The notes below the pieces were generated by a model, which saw only the letters and a program-made list of their open reading frames with translations, was not told the DNA's origin and ran no database searches. Position numbers and translations under genes: made by a program. Of a DNA stretch of 64,000 nt, positions 14,568-52,227 are shown piece by piece. The stretch's first letter is position 1, and each line of letters starts with the position of its first letter. Where the stretch lies: NCBI RefSeq assembly GCF_044324875.1, contig NZ_CP172185.1. One strand, written 5' to 3'. Source of the stretch: Escherichia coli (GTDB lineage: Bacteria; Pseudomonadota; Gammaproteobacteria; Enterobacterales; Enterobacteriaceae).

Positions 14568-16639
<2,072 letters not shown>

Positions 16640-38300: not shown

Positions 38301-38639
38301 TTATTTTTTGATTTTTGCCTTCAGGCGTGTCCACAGGAAAATGCAAACTGCGGTATATACCCGTGTGATAAACAACAGTTTAAGGCTGAAATACTCTCCT
38401 GCCTCGCTGGCATTCGTTTCAAACATAGCGAAAAGAACACTCTGCGAGAACTCATGACTATAAATAAAATAATAACAGAGTGCTGTCAGTGACGTAGTCC
38501 AGAGAATAATACCGACAACCGCTGCAATAATTTTTATCCGTTCTGGAAAAAGAAACACGGGTATCCGCCACAGGGAGCTGAATAACAGTGAATCTCGTAT
38601 TCCATTTATTCCACCGTATCCGGTGCTGAAGATAATCAC
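38301..38639 (-). CDS. Hypothetical membrane protein (possibly a fragment), downstream of the glycosyltransferase
   Basis: 112-aa hydrophobic ORF; function not recognisable. Confidence 0.3.
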   Translation of the reverse strand: MIIFSTGYGGINGIRDSLLFSSLWRIPVFLFPERIKIIAAVVGIILWTTSLTALCYYFIYSHEFSQSVLFAMFETNASEAGEYFSLKLLFITRVYTAVCIFLWTRLKAKIKK

Positions 38640-38803
38640 CTGCAGCAGGGTGGAAAAGATAAAGTATCGCCCCCGTGCGCTCCGGCTGAAAGCAGGTCTG
38701 CTGTTTCCGGCATTTAAATGTATTGACCATCTCCCGGTAAAATGTAATAAATCCCCCGTTACCGGAAAACCGATGAACAGAATTCGGACAGAAAATGAGT
38801 TCC

Positions 38804-39746
38804 TCAGTTACCTGTTGCGTTTCCCCCGGTCTGATGAGCCAGAGACACAATGGTCTGTACCGTTCTGTTGATATTAAACCGGTATTCGATATCTTCTCTG
38901 GCGCTGGCAACCATCATCCTGAAGCGTTCCGGGCGGGACAAAAAATCCCGAAGCGCACTGGTCCATGCAGTCATATCTCCCACAGGTAAAAGTGTTCCTG
39001 TCACATTTTTCTGAATGGCATCCGGGATCCCGCCAGTCTCACTGGCAATAACGGGAACACCGGAGGCTGACGCTTCAGCCAGGACCATGCCAAATGCCTC
39101 ATTTTTCAGAAGGCATGATAGCACACTGGCAACCCGGTATATCGGTAACGCCGGGAAAACAGCACCAGCCATGAAAACATCACCACTCATTCCCAGTGAT
39201 TCAATCTGCAGGCGAAGGCGTTCTTCGTATTCCTCACGACCAGCGCCCACCACGAGCCATCGAAATACTTTCCCTTCCATCTTCAGTTGGTGCAACACCC
39301 GGAGCATAAATTCATGCCCTTTCTCGGGACGCAACATACCCACCTGGACAATCAGCGGGATATTGCCCGCTGATTCTGTCCATCCCTGAATATGCGGAGG
39401 TAACTGTTGCCTGACTTCTCTGTGTAATACAGAAACGATGCCAGCATATCAGACGGCTCAGGCCTGCAATGTTACTGTCATGACCACTGTGGCAGATTAC
39501 CAGATCAGGTCTGAATTACCGGATTACCTGCCGCAGTCTGATGATGGAAGGAAGGTGAAGACTGTTCCTGAAAGGAATAAAAGTAACATCATGTCCGATT
39601 GTTCTGGCTTCATGAGCTATTTTACTTTTTTCCCTGCAGGCGAGTAAAACAGAATGCCCCTGTTTCTGGAGCGCTGTCATCTGTGCCAGAGCCTGTAACT
39701 CCTGGCCACCAATATCTGGTGAAGACTCAGTGAATAAAATCTTCAT
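38804..39746 (-). pseudogene. Glycosyltransferase family 4 (GT-B), frameshifted
   Basis: N-terminal GT4-like fragment 39516..39746 (MKILFTESSPDIGGQELQALAQ…) and C-terminal GT1/GT4 domain 38804..39343 (…EAFGMVLAEASASGVPVIASETGGIPD…) in different frames. Confidence 0.6.
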
Positions 39747-40401
39747 TATTAATTCTCTGGTAATCTTGGCCCCTTATGAAGAGCCAGTAATGAAGAGAAA
39801 AATGGCGTGATATAATAAAAAGGCACCGTTTCAGCCAACCGCAATATTCCCGTTCTTTTGTACTAATACGTCCTATAAGTAATGAACCTTTTACAGGGCA
39901 GTTCATTCTTCTTTCCGTTGTATATAAATAAGATAAACCAAGTTCTCTGGTGAGATTAATATAATCTCTGCTATAATATCCTGCAGGCCAGCATAGATGG
40001 GGACTACAGTATCCCAGTTTTTCCTTCAGACATTGTTTGCCTGTCATAATAGCTTCTTCCATGAGTCGGCACTGCTCAGTACGTGGTACAGACAGTCTGT
40101 CCCAGCGTTTATGTGAATGGGTATGTAAATGGAATTCAACAAGACCGGAATCACGCATTTCCCGGACTTCAGACCAGCGAAGCATCACTTCATCGGAACG
40201 GTTATCTGCAATCAACTGCTCACAGTCGCGATGCGAATATTCCCGTTTCTGTCTGTAACGCACCTTCCCGTCACCAATCAACCCTGTAATGAGAAAAATA
40301 TGCGTATGAAGATTGTATTCCTTCAGTACCGGCCATGCCCGGAACCAGTTATCAAGATATCCGTCATCGAATGTAATCATGAAGCTCTTTCTTGGAAGCA
40401 T
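39727..40401 (-). CDS. Polysaccharide deacetylase (NodB-homology, CE4)
   Basis: 224-aa ORF with ITFDDGY motif and conserved His-rich region (HLHTHSH). Confidence 0.6.
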   Translation of the reverse strand: MLPRKSFMITFDDGYLDNWFRAWPVLKEYNLHTHIFLITGLIGDGKVRYRQKREYSHRDCEQLIADNRSDEVMLRWSEVREMRDSGLVEFHLHTHSHKRWDRLSVPRTEQCRLMEEAIMTGKQCLKEKLGYCSPHLCWPAGYYSRDYINLTRELGLSYLYTTERRMNCPVKGSLLIGRISTKEREYCGWLKRCLFIISRHFSLHYWLFIRGQDYQRINNEDFIH

Positions 40402-42267
40402 TCCCCCCTGATAAAAATATTAAAGTTCAGCGGATGTTACTGTCCGCCAGTTATTTTTTGCGAGCCACTCTATCTGTTCACAAAATATTTCAGGTGAAAG
40501 TGTCACAAGCCCCGGACAGCGACTGACATGATGGTACATCAGTACGGGAAGATGTCTTGCATTCAACATAAAGCATTATCACCAGTTAGTTATACAGTAA
40601 ATATACCCCGAGTAAAAACAGGGCGGTTTAGGATATGTCTGGCTCCGGGTATTCTACTATGTAATCAGGGAATAATGGACAATGAGAATACAACAGACAC
40701 TTTTAATATTTCCGACTGTTTATCAAAATAATTTTATCCTTTGTGAATATATTGTTTTTATCAGATGATTTACTTATTTTCCAGGAAAATAAAATCCTTC
40801 GATTTCAGGACACTCAGAGGAATATACCTGCTTCCGTCAAAAATCATAAAAACCGTGTCCCGATTAGTTTTAGCAGCAGGATCAAATGCAGTAATATAAT
40901 GATCTTATACCAGTAAGCCACTGGGAAATGCCCTCAAAATGTCGTGCACTGATTTTTCGGTTGAGAGCCTCATAATACCTAATATTACTGGCCGTAATAA
41001 TCCGGAGGCACAGCATAGCTTTCTTGTACAGAGGCATCATGATGAACAGGATTAATACCGTCACAGATGCACAAGTTTTACCCGTGATAAAGAATCCCGT
41101 TTTGTCCGCACTTGCCTGCGCCAGCGTTGAAAACGTGCCGGTTATTGTAGTTAAGTTATTGCCGCTAACTTTTTCACAACCCACCTATCCGGATATTTCC
41201 TTATTCTTCATATATTACATCTCATAAATTTAAATGTGAGTTTCTCATGGGTAAAATAAATTATACGAATCGCATCAATAGGAAAGACAGACGGTGCTGC
41301 CGATATAAAACGGGAAGTGACGGGATAAGCAGTTATGTGAATATTGTTTCAAAAAATGATATTTTGTGTTGTTAAAGTATAACTTTGCAATAAGCTATCC
41401 ATGATGGGATTCTGTAAATGAACAAAACACTCTCTTCAATTCTGCTCATCTTCGGTATCTGTGCATCATCACTGGCTGCTGATAAAAAAGAACCGTCAGT
41501 TTTCCACGATGTGAAGGGCAGGAAGCATCGGCTGTTTCAGCCAGCGTCAAACGGAACTATCTCCAGAAACAGGTGCTTCACAGGAAAGATGACTAGGTGC
41601 TCCTCAGTCAGCAGCGTCCTGTTGTCTGGGTGAATCTTCGTGAGCTGGTAAGTAAAGGTGATAATTTAGTCACAGCGCATCTCACCGCCAGGGGGAATAA
41701 AGCCGATATTCAGTATCGGGTGCGCATTGACTGTAAGAACGAAAACGCTATCTGGCAGCGCCAGGGATGAACGCTTGAAGATAACCACAGAGTATGAACA
41801 AACGGACTCTACATGTTCATTATGACTAAAAAAACGCTGCACGTTCTCTGTTTTATTTTACGTTGCTGTCATAACGTGTTTACCTCAATTTTCGGGAACG
41901 TGTTCTTAGCGCTTAGACTACCCCTGAATCTTCTGCTGTTGAAGGGCCGTAACAGGGTAAGTGATAACAGATGTCTGGACATATAGGAGCAAATTCACCG
42001 ATTTACTTAATCATGATGTTATTTTGTAAAATAAGCTGAGGGGAGTTTCACATAATGTTAGTTTTTGTGTAAACGCAAGAAGGAAAATCAATAAAATTAA
42101 TATATAGTTATATGTTGTAGGTGTGAGTATGACTGTTTGGCCGTGGAGTGCATTCCTAAATTAGGATTGGATCATTTAAGGTTTAACACATTATTAAATA
42201 CGGCAAATTACAGTAAAATACTTTGCCGTATTTAGAAATAAAATTAAATTTTTCTATAGAATATTAT

Positions 42268-42657
42268 TTATCTGAATTTTCGGTGGCCTTCCAGTTTTAT
42301 ATTATTCATTTTATCCAGAGCATCACGTAGTGACTCTATATTCCCCGACTCAACCTTCTCTTTTGCAAGATTGATTTCATTTTGTAGTTTCTTCAACTCA
42401 TTCTTATAACTTTCCACTGCGACTTTATCGTTGCTGTTTATTTTTTCAGGAAGAGTATTCATGGAAGCATTTACAGCTTTGTCCATCATATCAAGAGCAT
42501 TTAATAGAGATTTTTTATCACCAGAGGATTGTAGAGTGCTCATATTTCTTGCAAGGCTCTGCATATTTTTATCCAGTCCGGAAGCCAAAGATATATGACT
42601 GGTAGATAAACACATTACAAGTATAGAACTCACAATAAAGAATTTTTGTTTCTTCAT
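42268..42657 (-). CDS. Cytochrome b562-family protein (secreted four-helix bundle)
   Basis: Signal peptide; heme-ligand Met in DKNMQSL (cf. b562 EDNMETL) and C-terminal His in LEGHRKFR (cf. NAYHQKYR); AT-rich context. Confidence 0.55.
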   Translation of the reverse strand: MKKQKFFIVSSILVMCLSTSHISLASGLDKNMQSLARNMSTLQSSGDKKSLLNALDMMDKAVNASMNTLPEKINSNDKVAVESYKNELKKLQNEINLAKEKVESGNIESLRDALDKMNNIKLEGHRKFR

Positions 42658-47552: not shown

Positions 47553-47822
47553 AAAAACACAGGCTAACCGCGCCTGCGTTTTTAATGACGGATGAAACAG
47601 AATCAGGTGCCGATTATGCCGCCGTCGGCTTTTACGATAACGACAGTTGAGGAGCGCGGACGACCAGCCTTATCGCCGTCAGGCCAGCTTGATACTGCCG
47701 TCGGATGCTGCGGATCGCTAAGCTGCGTATTCCGCTCTATTCGATCACGGATTGGCATCGAAGTCCGATCAGCGATTCGCATCCATTCGATCAACCGGGA
47801 ACTTAACTTTTTCTACCGCTTT

Positions 47823-48578
47823 TTAACGCGTTTTTTCGCTGCTTTCCACTACCGGGGGATTTTTCCTCAGTGACTCTCCCTGAAGGACCACTCGGTGTGA
47901 GTTATGTACCAGTCTGTCCAGGATGGCATCTGCTGTTGTTGGGTTCTCCATCAGACCATGCCATTTATCTACCGGGAACTGGCTTACCACTATCGTGCTG
48001 CTTTGTCCGTAACGATCCTCTATGAGCTCCAGAAGGTCATTACACTGGGCGTTACTTAACTGTTCCAGCCCCAGATCGTCCAGGATTAGAACCTGTATTT
48101 TTTGCAACTGTTTCAGATATTTCAGCCAGCTGCCATCAACACGTCCCTGAGCCAGTTGTTCCAGTAATCGCCCGGTTCTACAGTACCGGACGCTGTGTTT
48201 CTGTCGACATGCCTGTTCGCCCAGCGCATTGGCTATCCAGCTCTTGCCACATCCTGTCGGACCGGTTATCAGCAGGTTTTTCCTGTGGGTTATGTAGTGG
48301 CCGTTCAGCAGTTCTCTCATCTGTTCAGCCCGCAGACCTCTTGAGGCCGGATAGCGCAGCCCTTCCGGTGTTGCCTGGTATTTCAGGCCGGCATTTTTTC
48401 TCAACCGTGCCACACGGCTGTTTTCCCTGCTCAGAAGCTCGTCATCAACCAGCAGCGTCAGCCTTTCCTCGAACGACAGTTCGTCGTAGGTCTGAGGCGT
48501 TTCCCGCTGCCGTATCAGGCTCCCGGCCATCGCCGGGAGTTTCAGTTGGGTCAGTTTGTTTAACAGGTTATCACTCAT
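47823..48578 (-). CDS. istB: IS21-family helper ATPase IstB
   Basis: MSDNLLNKLTQLKLPAMAGSL… with Walker A GPTGCGKS and Walker B VLILDDLG. Confidence 0.8.
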   Translation of the reverse strand: MSDNLLNKLTQLKLPAMAGSLIRQRETPQTYDELSFEERLTLLVDDELLSRENSRVARLRKNAGLKYQATPEGLRYPASRGLRAEQMRELLNGHYITHRKNLLITGPTGCGKSWIANALGEQACRQKHSVRYCRTGRLLEQLAQGRVDGSWLKYLKQLQKIQVLILDDLGLEQLSNAQCNDLLELIEDRYGQSSTIVVSQFPVDKWHGLMENPTTADAILDRLVHNSHRVVLQGESLRKNPPVVESSEKTR

Positions 48579-48594
48579 ACTGTTGTTCCTTCTG

Positions 48595-50160
48595 TCAGTG
48601 GTAGTAGCCCGGACCACGCAGGTTTTCATGCTCTGAAGCATATGCCGGATGTTGTTCGCCCTGGCGGGATAATGGAAGCTCCAGGTTCTCCCGATGGTGA
48701 CGCAGCAGATTGTCGATAAAGCGTCTGTCAGGGGCGTTATAGTGCAGGGCAACGTAACAGGCCTTTTCCAGCCGTTCCGGGCCGTATTTTTTCTGAAGTG
48801 CCAGCAGCCCCAGAACTGCACGATAAGCCAGTTCCGGATGGGGTTTTGCCTTCAGCATGGATTCAACCACCCGGCCTGTGGACGGGCCCGTACGTTTTCC
48901 CTGCTCGATCAGGCGTTCCGGTGTCCATGTCCCGTGCTGCCGGTGGCGCTCTGGCATGTGAAGCGGATTGGTTGTGTGTTTATATTCATGTGTGCTGCGC
49001 GGATGTTGCGCCACACACTGCCCCTTGTGCCAGAGCTGTACCACCGACTGCCCCGCCTTCAGTGACAGACGCTGACCGACCAGTTCGTGTGGAACGGAGT
49101 ACCAGTGACGGGCATATTCAACGTGGTAGTCAGGGCCAACCTTCACAGCTTTGTATTCCGTGTATTCATAAGGTGCCAGAGGCAGCGGAGAGAGTGCTGG
49201 CGCATCCAGTATGCGGAAGCGTTCTGCACGGGTTTGATTGCCGTACCCCTTCATTGGCCGGTTATTCATGTCTGTCAGTAACTCCCTAAGGCGCGCATTC
49301 AGCGCCCTGAGCGTGTGGAAGGTTTCATTACGGATGCGGGCAAGAAGCCATCGTTCAACGATGAGGACGCCGTTTTCTGCTTTTGGTTTATCTTTAGGTT
49401 TGCGTGGTCGGGCCGGGATGATAACCGTGCCATAGTGCTCAGCCAGTGCCTGATAACTGTCGTTGATGACAGGCTCATATCGATCGGCCTTTTTCACTGC
49501 GCTTCTGAGGTTATCGGGGATGAGCAGCTTCGGTACGCCGCCCAGGAAGGTCAGGCAACGGCTGTGGGCATTTAACCATGACATCATGTCCTGACCTTCG
49601 CACGCTTCAACGTAGGTATAGTTGGACGCCCCCATTACGGCCACGAAGATTGCCACGCGGCGTATCTCACCGGTGTCCGGATTAATAACAGGAACCGTAG
49701 GACCACAGAAGTCGATAAAAAGCTTTTCGCCGGCACGATGCTCCTGGCGCATGGAGAGACGTCGCGTTTTTTTCCACTCCCGGTAGCAACGGCAGAAGTG
49801 CGAGTATCCCATCGCTTTGTTACCCGCCTGTGCCTTGTATTCCATCCACAACAGTTGCCGCGTCACACCTGGTTTTCTCATTTCCGTATCGAAGTACAAC
49901 ATGTCAGGCATTACAAGCTCTGATGCAAAGGTGTCTTTGGGCGGAAAAATGAGTTTCTCCAGCGTGTCATGGGATATATCAGCAGGTAATGGCCATGACA
50001 GAGAAGAGGCTTTGAAGCGGGCAAGAACCTCAAAAACGGTTGAGGCGCTGATGTGTAACGTCAGTCCGATACAACGGTTAGTCAGCTTCTTGTCGAACTT
50101 GAGCTGAAGGATCTTAAAACAGGTTTCCATAGTGCTCCTGGATTTTCTCTTTCTGGACAT
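48595..50160 (-). CDS. istA: IS21-family transposase IstA
   Basis: About 510-520 aa with HTH N-terminus and DDE integrase core; start codon uncertain (ORF extends to 50241). Confidence 0.75.
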   Translation of the reverse strand: MSRKRKSRSTMETCFKILQLKFDKKLTNRCIGLTLHISASTVFEVLARFKASSLSWPLPADISHDTLEKLIFPPKDTFASELVMPDMLYFDTEMRKPGVTRQLLWMEYKAQAGNKAMGYSHFCRCYREWKKTRRLSMRQEHRAGEKLFIDFCGPTVPVINPDTGEIRRVAIFVAVMGASNYTYVEACEGQDMMSWLNAHSRCLTFLGGVPKLLIPDNLRSAVKKADRYEPVINDSYQALAEHYGTVIIPARPRKPKDKPKAENGVLIVERWLLARIRNETFHTLRALNARLRELLTDMNNRPMKGYGNQTRAERFRILDAPALSPLPLAPYEYTEYKAVKVGPDYHVEYARHWYSVPHELVGQRLSLKAGQSVVQLWHKGQCVAQHPRSTHEYKHTTNPLHMPERHRQHGTWTPERLIEQGKRTGPSTGRVVESMLKAKPHPELAYRAVLGLLALQKKYGPERLEKACYVALHYNAPDRRFIDNLLRHHRENLELPLSRQGEQHPAYASEHENLRGPGYYH

Positions 50161-50241
50161 TGACGTCTCCACTGGTTTAAACACGGCAATGGAGACTGTG
50201 GTGAAAAGAGTTAATTCCCGGAGTGACTGGCAGGATGCCAA

Positions 50242-52227
50242 TCAATGATCGGAAGCATGCCAAATCGTGATCGATTGTGATGCCAAACTGTGATCGGAGA
50301 TGGATGCCAAATCATGATCGATTCGAATGCCAAACTGCGATCGATTCAGATGCCATTTTGCACTAAGCCCTTCGCTTGGCTCGCCAGGGTGCTGGATGTT
50401 AATAAACAGCGTCCGGTTATCCGGAGTGAACGCGATGCCGGTGATTTCGCAGCCGCGCGGGCCGGTCAGGAAGCGGCGGAACTCATTGGTACCGGGAATC
50501 GTCGCCACCATCTGGTTGTTGCCCATGCCTTTGTAATCTTTAATATTTATGGTTGATGACGACACGTCGGTCTGGATCCATAGCACGCCGCGGTGATCGA
50601 AGCTCAGGCCATCGGCGCTGCCGAATTCCGCACCCTTCATGCTGCCTTTGGTTTCCGGTTTGTCTGTATCGGTGCGACCGCCCATCACAAGAATATCCCA
50701 GGCAAACTGCAGCGCGGTCGGGTCACCGTTATGCTCCAGCCAGTGAATGATGTGGCCGTAAACGTTTTTGGCGCGCGGGTTGGCCGCATCCACTGGCGCT
50801 TTTCCTTCCTTACCGCGATCGCTGTTGTTGGTGAGCGTGCAGTAAACGCTGCCGGCGTGATATGGATCGACCGCAATCCACTCCGGGCGGTCCATTTTAG
50901 TGGCCCCCACGGCGTCTGCCGCCAGACGGGTTTTAATCAACAGGTCGCCCTGGTTTTCAAACCCTTTACTGGCGTCGAGCCCATTTTGTCCGAACACCAG
51001 CGGTAGCCACTCGCCTTTGCCGTCGTCGTTAAATTTCGCCACGTACAGAGTGCCTTTTTCCAGCAGGTGCATGTTGGCTTTGCGATCCTGCGGGTTGAAT
51101 TTTCCTTCCGAGACAAATTTATATATGTATTCGAATTTCTGGTCATCGCCCATATAGACCACAACGCGGTTATCCGGGGCAATTGTCACCGCTGCGCCTT
51201 CGTGTTTGATGCGACCAAGCGCGGTGTGCTTGCGCGGCACTGAATGCGGATCGTATGGATCGATTTCCACCACCCAGCCGAAGCGGTTCGGCTCGTTCGG
51301 CGTGGCGTCGACGCTGAACCTTTTATCCACTTCGTTCCAGCGGTAAGAGTCGTCGCTCCCGCTGATACCGTAACGTTTTTCCAGCGGGTTCATCTCTGCT
51401 TTTTTTACGAAAATATCGGACCAGTTCTCTTCACACGTCAGATAGGTGCCCCACGGCGTAAATCCGTTGGCACAGTTCTGCATGGTGCCGAGAATGATTT
51501 CGCCTTTCGGATCGTCAACTGTTTGCATCAGTGGGTTATGCAGCGCCGGACCGGTGATTTTCATCGGCGTGTTAACGGTGATGCGGCGTGCGAACGATGA
51601 CGGGCGCACCACTTCCCAGCCCAGGGGCACTTTTTTTACTTCAATGACCGACACGCCCATCGCGTTCTGGCCTTTAAGAGCTTTATCGGCGCTCCAGTTG
51701 GCATCGCCATCTTTAAACAGTAGACCGTTATCGATGTATTCATGGTTTATGGCAAGCAGGCCGTGATCGGAGCTGTTCCCGCCCTGCGGCAGGCTAAACC
51801 ACGCCATGCCGTCGTGGTGCATCCCGGCCTGCGCCGCCTGTTCTTCCGTGGTGTTGCTACCGTCGGTTTTAAAAACCGGCAGATTTCCGGCAATCCCGGT
51901 GGCGTCGCCCCATTTGTAGAAGGGCTTCGCGATGTATCCTTCCGGCACGATAACGGTATCTTCCGTGGAAACCGGCAGGCTGGTGAAACCGAGCGTCGTC
52001 GCTTTGCCGAGGTTACCGCTTGCTTTGGAGACCACTTTCGCCAGCGCGTTTTCCTGTTTCAGCAGAAATGGGAACGCTGCCGCGGCACCGGCGACCGTGC
52101 CTGCCTGTAACAGACGGCGGCGTGACAAATAGACTTCCGCCACCTGCGAAAACGCGCGGTTATCGCTCGGGTTACTGATTTCTTCACTATGCTCACGTTT
52201 GAATAAAGTTTTTAACGGTCTGCCCAT
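50242..52227 (-). CDS. Tat-signal secreted PhoX-family (DUF839) phosphatase-like protein; C-terminus replaced by IS21-derived codons
   Basis: 661-aa ORF; twin-arginine motif SRRRLLQAGTVAGAAAA; beta-propeller-like repeats; last about 40 codons read through the IS21 terminal repeats. Confidence 0.45.
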   Translation of the reverse strand: MGRPLKTLFKREHSEEISNPSDNRAFSQVAEVYLSRRRLLQAGTVAGAAAAFPFLLKQENALAKVVSKASGNLGKATTLGFTSLPVSTEDTVIVPEGYIAKPFYKWGDATGIAGNLPVFKTDGSNTTEEQAAQAGMHHDGMAWFSLPQGGNSSDHGLLAINHEYIDNGLLFKDGDANWSADKALKGQNAMGVSVIEVKKVPLGWEVVRPSSFARRITVNTPMKITGPALHNPLMQTVDDPKGEIILGTMQNCANGFTPWGTYLTCEENWSDIFVKKAEMNPLEKRYGISGSDDSYRWNEVDKRFSVDATPNEPNRFGWVVEIDPYDPHSVPRKHTALGRIKHEGAAVTIAPDNRVVVYMGDDQKFEYIYKFVSEGKFNPQDRKANMHLLEKGTLYVAKFNDDGKGEWLPLVFGQNGLDASKGFENQGDLLIKTRLAADAVGATKMDRPEWIAVDPYHAGSVYCTLTNNSDRGKEGKAPVDAANPRAKNVYGHIIHWLEHNGDPTALQFAWDILVMGGRTDTDKPETKGSMKGAEFGSADGLSFDHRGVLWIQTDVSSSTINIKDYKGMGNNQMVATIPGTNEFRRFLTGPRGCEITGIAFTPDNRTLFINIQHPGEPSEGLSAKWHLNRSQFGIRIDHDLASISDHSLASQSITIWHASDH

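Follow-up and report, generated by a model that had tools for sequence, protein, structure and literature searches.

What is encoded at positions 41418 to 41770, plus strand, of the 64,000-nt stretch of Escherichia coli DNA analysed here (the window), and in what state? An earlier note on the same DNA had proposed a frameshifted, small secreted or lipoprotein-like gene of unknown function, with an ORF of 71 codons continued in a second frame. The comparisons below uphold the frameshift, place it elsewhere and assign the gene to a family. They point to a non-functional relic, the pseudogene of a yebF paralog (PF13995) that is accessory and carried on a genomic island, a reading to which we give a probability of about 0.93. 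The locus is already known, as it is annotated in RefSeq, where it is arguably mis-annotated as a live 57-aa CDS.

The ORF list and its translations gave a 71-codon ATG ORF at 41418–41633 with the N-terminus MNKTLSSILLIFGICASSLAA, and a 57-codon GTG ORF at 41597–41770, in another frame, with the C-terminal end ...RIDCKNENAIWQRQG. Translation of the three forward frames showed that this second frame, which encodes ...VNLRELVSKGDNLVTAHLTARGNKADIQYRVRIDCKNENAIWQRQG and terminates at 41770, is open already from 41486 (KRTVSFPRCEGQEASAV...); it reads KRTVSFPRCEGQEASAVSASVKRNYLQKQVLHRKDD, then a TAG, then VLLSQQRPVVWVNL.... Both pieces in the earlier note therefore exist. The two frames overlap by more than 100 nt, so the gene is not built as 71 codons with a shift after them: the switch lies at 41484–41489, at codon 24 rather than codon 71, which is 48 codons further upstream, and codons 24–71 of the first ORF are out of frame. 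The product of the 71-codon ORF matched no Pfam or NCBIfam family. The second lesion, a TAG at 41594–41596, is absent from the earlier note. The parts of the locus are as follows.

41418–41770, plus strand: the whole probable yebF-paralog pseudogene, 353 nt vs. 354 nt in intact relatives, delimited by alignment with intact copies and by matches to PF13995 and PDB 2LQV.
41418–41480, plus strand: predicted signal peptide, codons 1–21, MNKTLSSILLIFGICASSLAA, with the ATG intact; in P0001 and P0002, both intact relatives, the N-terminus is the same or almost the same.
41484–41489, plus strand: A6 tract with a 1-bp loss, shifting the frame at codon 24; GATAAAAAAGAACC in the window vs. GATAAAAACAGAACC in in-frame alleles, from pairwise and multiple alignments.
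41486–41593, plus strand: YebF-homologous codons ~24–59, in the –1 frame relative to the ATG, KRTVSFPRCEGQEASAVSASVKRNYLQKQVLHRKDD, with the first conserved cysteine at 41510–41512; from translation and from alignment with 2LQV and the intact relatives.
41490–41633, plus strand: out-of-frame tail of the 71-codon ORF, not genuine coding sequence, the YebF homology being carried by the overlapping frame.
41594–41596, plus strand: premature TAG at codon 60, which is CAG (Gln) in every intact relative (alignment columns 179–181).
41597–41770, plus strand: 57-codon GTG ORF for the YebF domain's C-terminal half, including the second conserved cysteine (41732–41734); annotated as WP_001354053.1, PF13995 positions 39–86 of 89.

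Restoring the lost base and reading the TAG as Gln gives a 117-aa protein. This repaired protein matched the Pfam family PF13995 (YebF) with 80.1 bits over profile positions 1–86 of 89 (cutoff 27, E = 1.2e-22), which supplies the family that the earlier note had left as unknown function; without the repair, the match is limited to the tail (positions 39–86 of 89, 44.6 bits). Against the solved structure of E. coli YebF (PDB 2LQV), 40 of the 94 aligned residues (~43%) are identical, with E = 8e-21, and the repaired locus shares 43.6% identity with canonical yebF by tblastn. With these E values, and with intact 117-aa proteins aligning end to end over both frames, the match is far beyond chance. 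Two conserved Cys codons, at 41510–41512 and 41732–41734, align with the cysteines of FPKCE and VDCK in 2LQV; both lie downstream of the frameshift, and in the window allele the TAG falls between them. Among NCBIfam models, the repaired allele scored 102 bits with PRK13680 and 94 bits with NF041240 (YebF_not_Cmi), the latter below its cutoff of 110. The uninterrupted ORF of ~117–118 codons expected of a functional YebF family member is missing at 41418–41770, where it is broken by the 1-bp loss and the TAG, and the locus is therefore classed as a pseudogene of the family.

A protein search recovered three intact 117-aa relatives from E. coli (P0001, P0002, and P0003), with 84%, 81%, and 77% amino acid identity at query coverages of 100%, 100%, and 99%; their DNA is 81–88% identical to the window copy. 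The earlier note had suggested a comparison with intact orthologs as the check, and the absence of homologs spanning both frames as the sign that it was wrong; these relatives do align over both frames. Four more matches (P0004–P0007) are further broken versions, P0007 being the 71-codon ORF of the window itself, truncated to 66 aa.

The lesions were mapped in a DNA alignment of nine copies of the yebF paralog. In the intact copies, codon 60 is CAG and the tract stays in frame, as GAA AAA AAC AGA or, in E7-1N7, as GAT AAA AAT AGA. The in-frame tract GAT AAA AAC AGA is also kept in the pseudogenes of GF43 and PKF11. At this tract the window reads GATAAAAA-AGAACC, one base fewer than GF43 (GATAAAAACAGAACC), which puts the frameshift directly after the signal peptide. 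Either the C of AAAAACAG was lost directly, or an A was lost after a C-to-A change had made an A7 run; both paths need the same number of events, and the LH50-c allele, which has A8 (+1) at the same tract and an intact CAG, hints at the A7 path. The TAG at codon 60 is common to the window, GF43, and PKF11 alleles. The GF43 copy is 90–95% identical, and its annotation is that of a YebF-family pseudogene, 354 nt long and interrupted by an internal stop; this copy and the PKF11 copy also share an ATG-to-ATA change, and PKF11 has a 4-bp deletion in addition. Of the two lesions, the TAG appears to be the older, because it also occurs in a 95%-identical allele whose genomic context differs.

On inspection, the leader MNKTLSSILLIFGICASSLAA combines a basic n-region with a hydrophobic core and ends in small residues; the intact relatives have leaders that align with it. 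Alignment with YebF suggests a Sec-type leader (signal peptidase I) with predicted cleavage after ...SLAA, consistent with the "secreted" half of the earlier description. The "lipoprotein-like" half does not hold: a regular-expression search of the leader for the lipobox [LVI][ASTVI][GAS]C gave no match, the sole leader Cys being preceded by F-G-I, and a lipoprotein reading was rejected on this ground.

Substitutions between the broken alleles fit a gene released from selection. Of the 16 differences between the window and GF43 alleles, 14 are non-synonymous and 2 synonymous (dN/dS ~2.1), so selection appears relaxed; on these 16 substitutions only, the pattern is indistinguishable from neutral (binomial p = 0.55) and differs from two intact comparisons (Fisher p = 0.0015 and 0.0022). 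Pairs of intact copies have dN/dS of 0.06–0.39. The repaired allele has also drifted in profile score, to 94 bits for NF041240, vs. 115–117 for intact paralogs.

The RefSeq/PGAP annotation at this locus, seen in the colinear record NZ_CP033635.1, consists of the CDS 41597–41770 only, "YebF family protein" WP_001354053.1. That PGAP labels the 57-codon tail an ordinary CDS and not a pseudogene counts against our reading, and it implies that the tail is a functional small protein, a truncated cytoplasmic peptide from the YebF C-terminus. The CDS is called in many genomes. Its GTG directly follows the TAG, and an AGGA precedes that GTG by 10 nt; the tail may therefore be translated to some extent. 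We nevertheless regard a functional peptide as very unlikely. The call is a mechanical product of a Pfam match on the longest remaining ORF, and the tail covers only positions 39–86 of the 89 in PF13995 and has neither a signal peptide nor the first cysteine of the pair typical of the domain (PMC5821083). Between the two TAG alleles, the tail carries 6 non-synonymous changes and 1 synonymous change, which argues against a selected small protein. No working YebF-like protein would be expected from it.

Two further readings concern the A tract and would leave the gene alive. The tract could be a phase-variable contingency site, or –1 slippage by the ribosome or during transcription could occur there, and the gene would then be switched or recoded and not dead; different alleles do carry –1 (window, A6) and +1 changes (A8 in LH50-c; also P0004), and, from the sequence itself, slippage by –1 on AAAAAAG would lead back into the YebF frame. 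The restored frame would still meet the TAG at codon 60, 35 codons on, and the zero-frame codons, AAA AAA G, are out of phase for a canonical A-AAA-AAG heptamer; on these two grounds a programmed –1 frameshift was rejected. A6 length is also constant in all 28 genomes with a 100% identical gene, the substitutions look neutral, and intact relatives need no slippage, which leaves a switched or recoded gene even less probable than a functional tail. Least credible of all is an artefact of sequencing or assembly, with the gene intact in the cell. A homopolymer is a typical place for such errors, yet 28 complete E. coli genomes, each assembled independently, have the gene at 100% identity along its 353 nt, and one more has it at 99.7%, which all but excludes a sequencing error. 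The TAG is a substitution rather than a homopolymer artefact and is common to a divergent allele, and the neighboring genes are decayed too. A pseudogene with two lesions remains the reading that we favor.

The setting of this pseudogene is a chromosomal island. The window passes from E. coli core genes (thrS ... xthA, ydjXYZ, ynjA) into the island, which begins with a tyrosine integrase at ~37066. The relic lies in this integrase-bounded segment after ynjA, and most island genes are likewise degraded. The "AT-rich interval" of the earlier note describes the flanks, at 30–38% GC, and not 41418–41770 itself, at ~46–48%. Three remnants of neighboring genes and elements were delimited.

38319–40569, minus strand: three consecutive envelope-modification pseudogenes (a phosphoethanolamine-transferase (pEtN) fragment, a GT4 glycosyltransferase, and a polysaccharide deacetylase), immediately upstream of the yebF relic.
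41062–41145, minus strand: remnant of a small outer-membrane beta-barrel gene, residues 13–40 (28 codons); tblastn 75% identity over 28 aa, E = 2e-8.
41958–41994, no strand assigned: IS2-end remnant of 37 nt, with 95% identity to the terminus of the L016 copy of IS2.

In LH50-c (L014), whose locus is 92–95% identical to window positions 38322–41814, intact versions of the GT4 and deacetylase genes are present, and the CptA-like transferase is broken as in the window. DNA homology to the barrel gene region extends over 41063–41279. The intact barrel protein is 249 aa long and matches PF13505 and OmpW, and its divergently transcribed gene adjoins the yebF paralog in the commonest context of intact copies (P0002-like), a pairing that recurs in the P0002-like loci examined. 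In the E7-1N7 intact copy, an IS2 element lies upstream in place of the barrel gene. In a sit-linked context (L011–L013), the intact paralog is followed by a gene for a DolP-like BON lipoprotein, a small hypothetical gene, DoxX, and sitABCD. Relative to L011, the window has a deletion of ~1.2 kb (41820 to 41829 in the window correspond to 6404 to 7589 in L011), with the loss of two genes, that for the DolP-like BON-domain lipoprotein and a hypothetical one of 98 aa.

At the downstream edge, homology to the GF43 and PKF11 yebF-paralog loci ends at ~41997, at the IS2 remnant. This remnant is probably the scar of a rearrangement that joined the yebF-relic segment to the cytochrome b562 gene. The latter (42268–42657, minus strand) is an intact paralog of 129 aa with a signal peptide (PF07361, E = 6.7e-16); it lies in DNA of 30–33% GC, in a part of the island where few other genes are open. 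An Rfam scan of 40400–42400 (E ≤ 1) returned only a sub-threshold snoZ112 hit (21 bits vs. a gathering score of 40, E = 0.38), taken as chance. Promoter-like sites were uninformative (5 found vs. 4.1 expected), and no terminator-like site was found on the plus strand after the relic.

An IS21-family element with 548-aa IstA-like and 332-aa IstB-like ORFs (47723–50363) adjoins a PhoX-family gene in the window and is absent from NZ_CP033635.1; that record has an ISEc12 at ~43021, of which the window has no copy. The island is actively reshuffled by IS elements. Elsewhere in the window, at 15255–16562, an IS3-family element (108-aa and 296-aa transposase ORFs), also absent from NZ_CP033635.1, interrupts chbG, the gene for chitin disaccharide deacetylase, ~75 nt from its 5′ end and probably inactivates it in this strain.

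We next consider how widely the paralog is distributed. By megablast, the 41200–42000 stretch occurs in 50 of 5,426 complete E. coli genomes, always on the chromosome, with the matched feature annotated as "YebF family protein". The yebF-paralog family as a whole occurs in 51 of the 5,426 (~1%), all chromosomal, with up to four copies per genome. The window allele is found at ≥99% identity in 29 of these 51 genomes, and an intact copy named "yebF: protein YebF" by RefSeq in 17. A tblastn search of plasmids did not find the paralog; it found only canonical yebF, at 43.6% identity, in large records, several of them of whole-chromosome size. The 23-mer AAAGCNGATATTCAGTAYCGNGT, which is conserved in all alleles, was not found in a set of one genome per species from 100,044 species, a search that as an exact pattern is a narrow probe. 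Host strains of the yebF-paralog family are heavily skewed to chickens and other birds, a bias that may reflect the sampling of lineages rather than adaptation.

Intact paralogs carry the core gene's name in RefSeq. The copy in L011 (NZ_CP033635.1, 3232378–3232731) and those in 16 other complete genomes are annotated "yebF: protein YebF", and WP_001030412.1 is an example of an intact paralog named "protein YebF". Five intact island paralogs scored 115.2–117.3 bits with NF041240, just clearing its cutoff of 110, which is why they receive the name. From their sequence (~43% identity to core YebF) and their different locus, the symbol yebF is misleading for these paralogs.

The repaired locus and K-12 YebF (2LQV; PF13995; NF041240) belong to the same family and have the same plan, 117 vs. 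118 aa with a leader of ~21 residues and a two-cysteine domain. Motifs common to the two include FP(R/K)CE, ASVKR(D/N)Y, DDQ, PV.WV, and RG..ADI.Y.V..DCK. They differ in that the window copy is only ~43% identical, lies in a mobile island after ynjA rather than at the core yebF locus, belongs to a paralog present in just 51 of 5426 complete genomes, and is inactivated by a frameshift and a nonsense codon. Experiments have shown that K-12 YebF is exported to the periplasm and released to the medium via outer-membrane porins (PMC6302416). In the cited literature, YebF appears as a secretion carrier with an export route that is only partly defined. By analogy, the ancestor of the relic was presumably exported like K-12 YebF.

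Two cysteines, forming a disulfide pair, typify the YebF-type domain, and they are also present in Cmi, a 117-aa protein with a YebF-type periplasmic module (PMC5821083). Cmi is anchored in the inner membrane via an uncleaved helix, and its gene lies beside the colicin M gene (PMC5821083). Unlike Cmi, the window locus has YebF models as its best NCBIfam matches (PRK13680 and "YebF_not_Cmi"), and neither the identical locus of NZ_CP033635.1 nor the intact-paralog loci have an annotated bacteriocin or colicin M gene. Given these matches, the lack of a colicin M gene nearby, and the membrane anchoring and toxin linkage of Cmi, the sequence places the locus in the YebF branch of PF13995 and not in the Cmi branch.

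The closest counterparts of the window copy are the intact island paralogs (P0001–P0003), which resemble it at 77–84% amino acid and 81–88% DNA identity, share its upstream sequence with the divergent barrel gene, and likewise lie in integrase-bounded islands. They remain open, under purifying selection, and with their neighbors kept, whereas the window copy has lost its frame, Gln60, and its neighbors.

These comparisons are consistent with the following history. The ancestral gene would have encoded a 117-aa precursor, with a Sec signal peptide of ~21 residues and a YebF-fold domain of ~96 residues bearing two conserved cysteines; by analogy with YebF, export to the periplasm would have followed, probably with release across the outer membrane. 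After the TAG arose, the copies would have drifted neutrally and gained further, independent lesions. In the window copy, the base loss at 41484–41489 puts the ribosome out of frame right after the signal peptide, and translation from the ATG yields the signal peptide followed by 48 nonsense residues. The in-frame remainder is the 57-codon tail only, which lacks the signal peptide and keeps one of the two cysteines.

For the window itself, the finding amounts to ordinary gene decay in a degraded, integrase-bounded E. coli island and has small biological weight. Its practical value is an annotation correction, the normal "YebF family protein" CDS of RefSeq being a piece of a two-lesion pseudogene. 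The family may hold more. A speculative and on balance improbable proposal is that the intact relatives form an accessory YebF module in mostly poultry-associated E. coli, consisting of a secreted YebF with its own divergent barrel (OMP_b-brl/OmpW-like) and, in some contexts, a DolP-like BON lipoprotein beside sitABCD; the barrel could be a dedicated export partner, or the module an envelope-stress unit, and the A tract a mutational on/off hotspot. If so, the window copy would be one of several independently silenced versions. As a weak negative, the top-ranked papers retrieved on island-borne or avian-strain copies made no mention of YebF. A second, diverged yebF, often intact and barrel-linked, is present in about 1% of complete E. 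coli genomes, many of chicken origin, and such an accessory paralog with a linked outer-membrane partner could be a handle on the native role of YebF.
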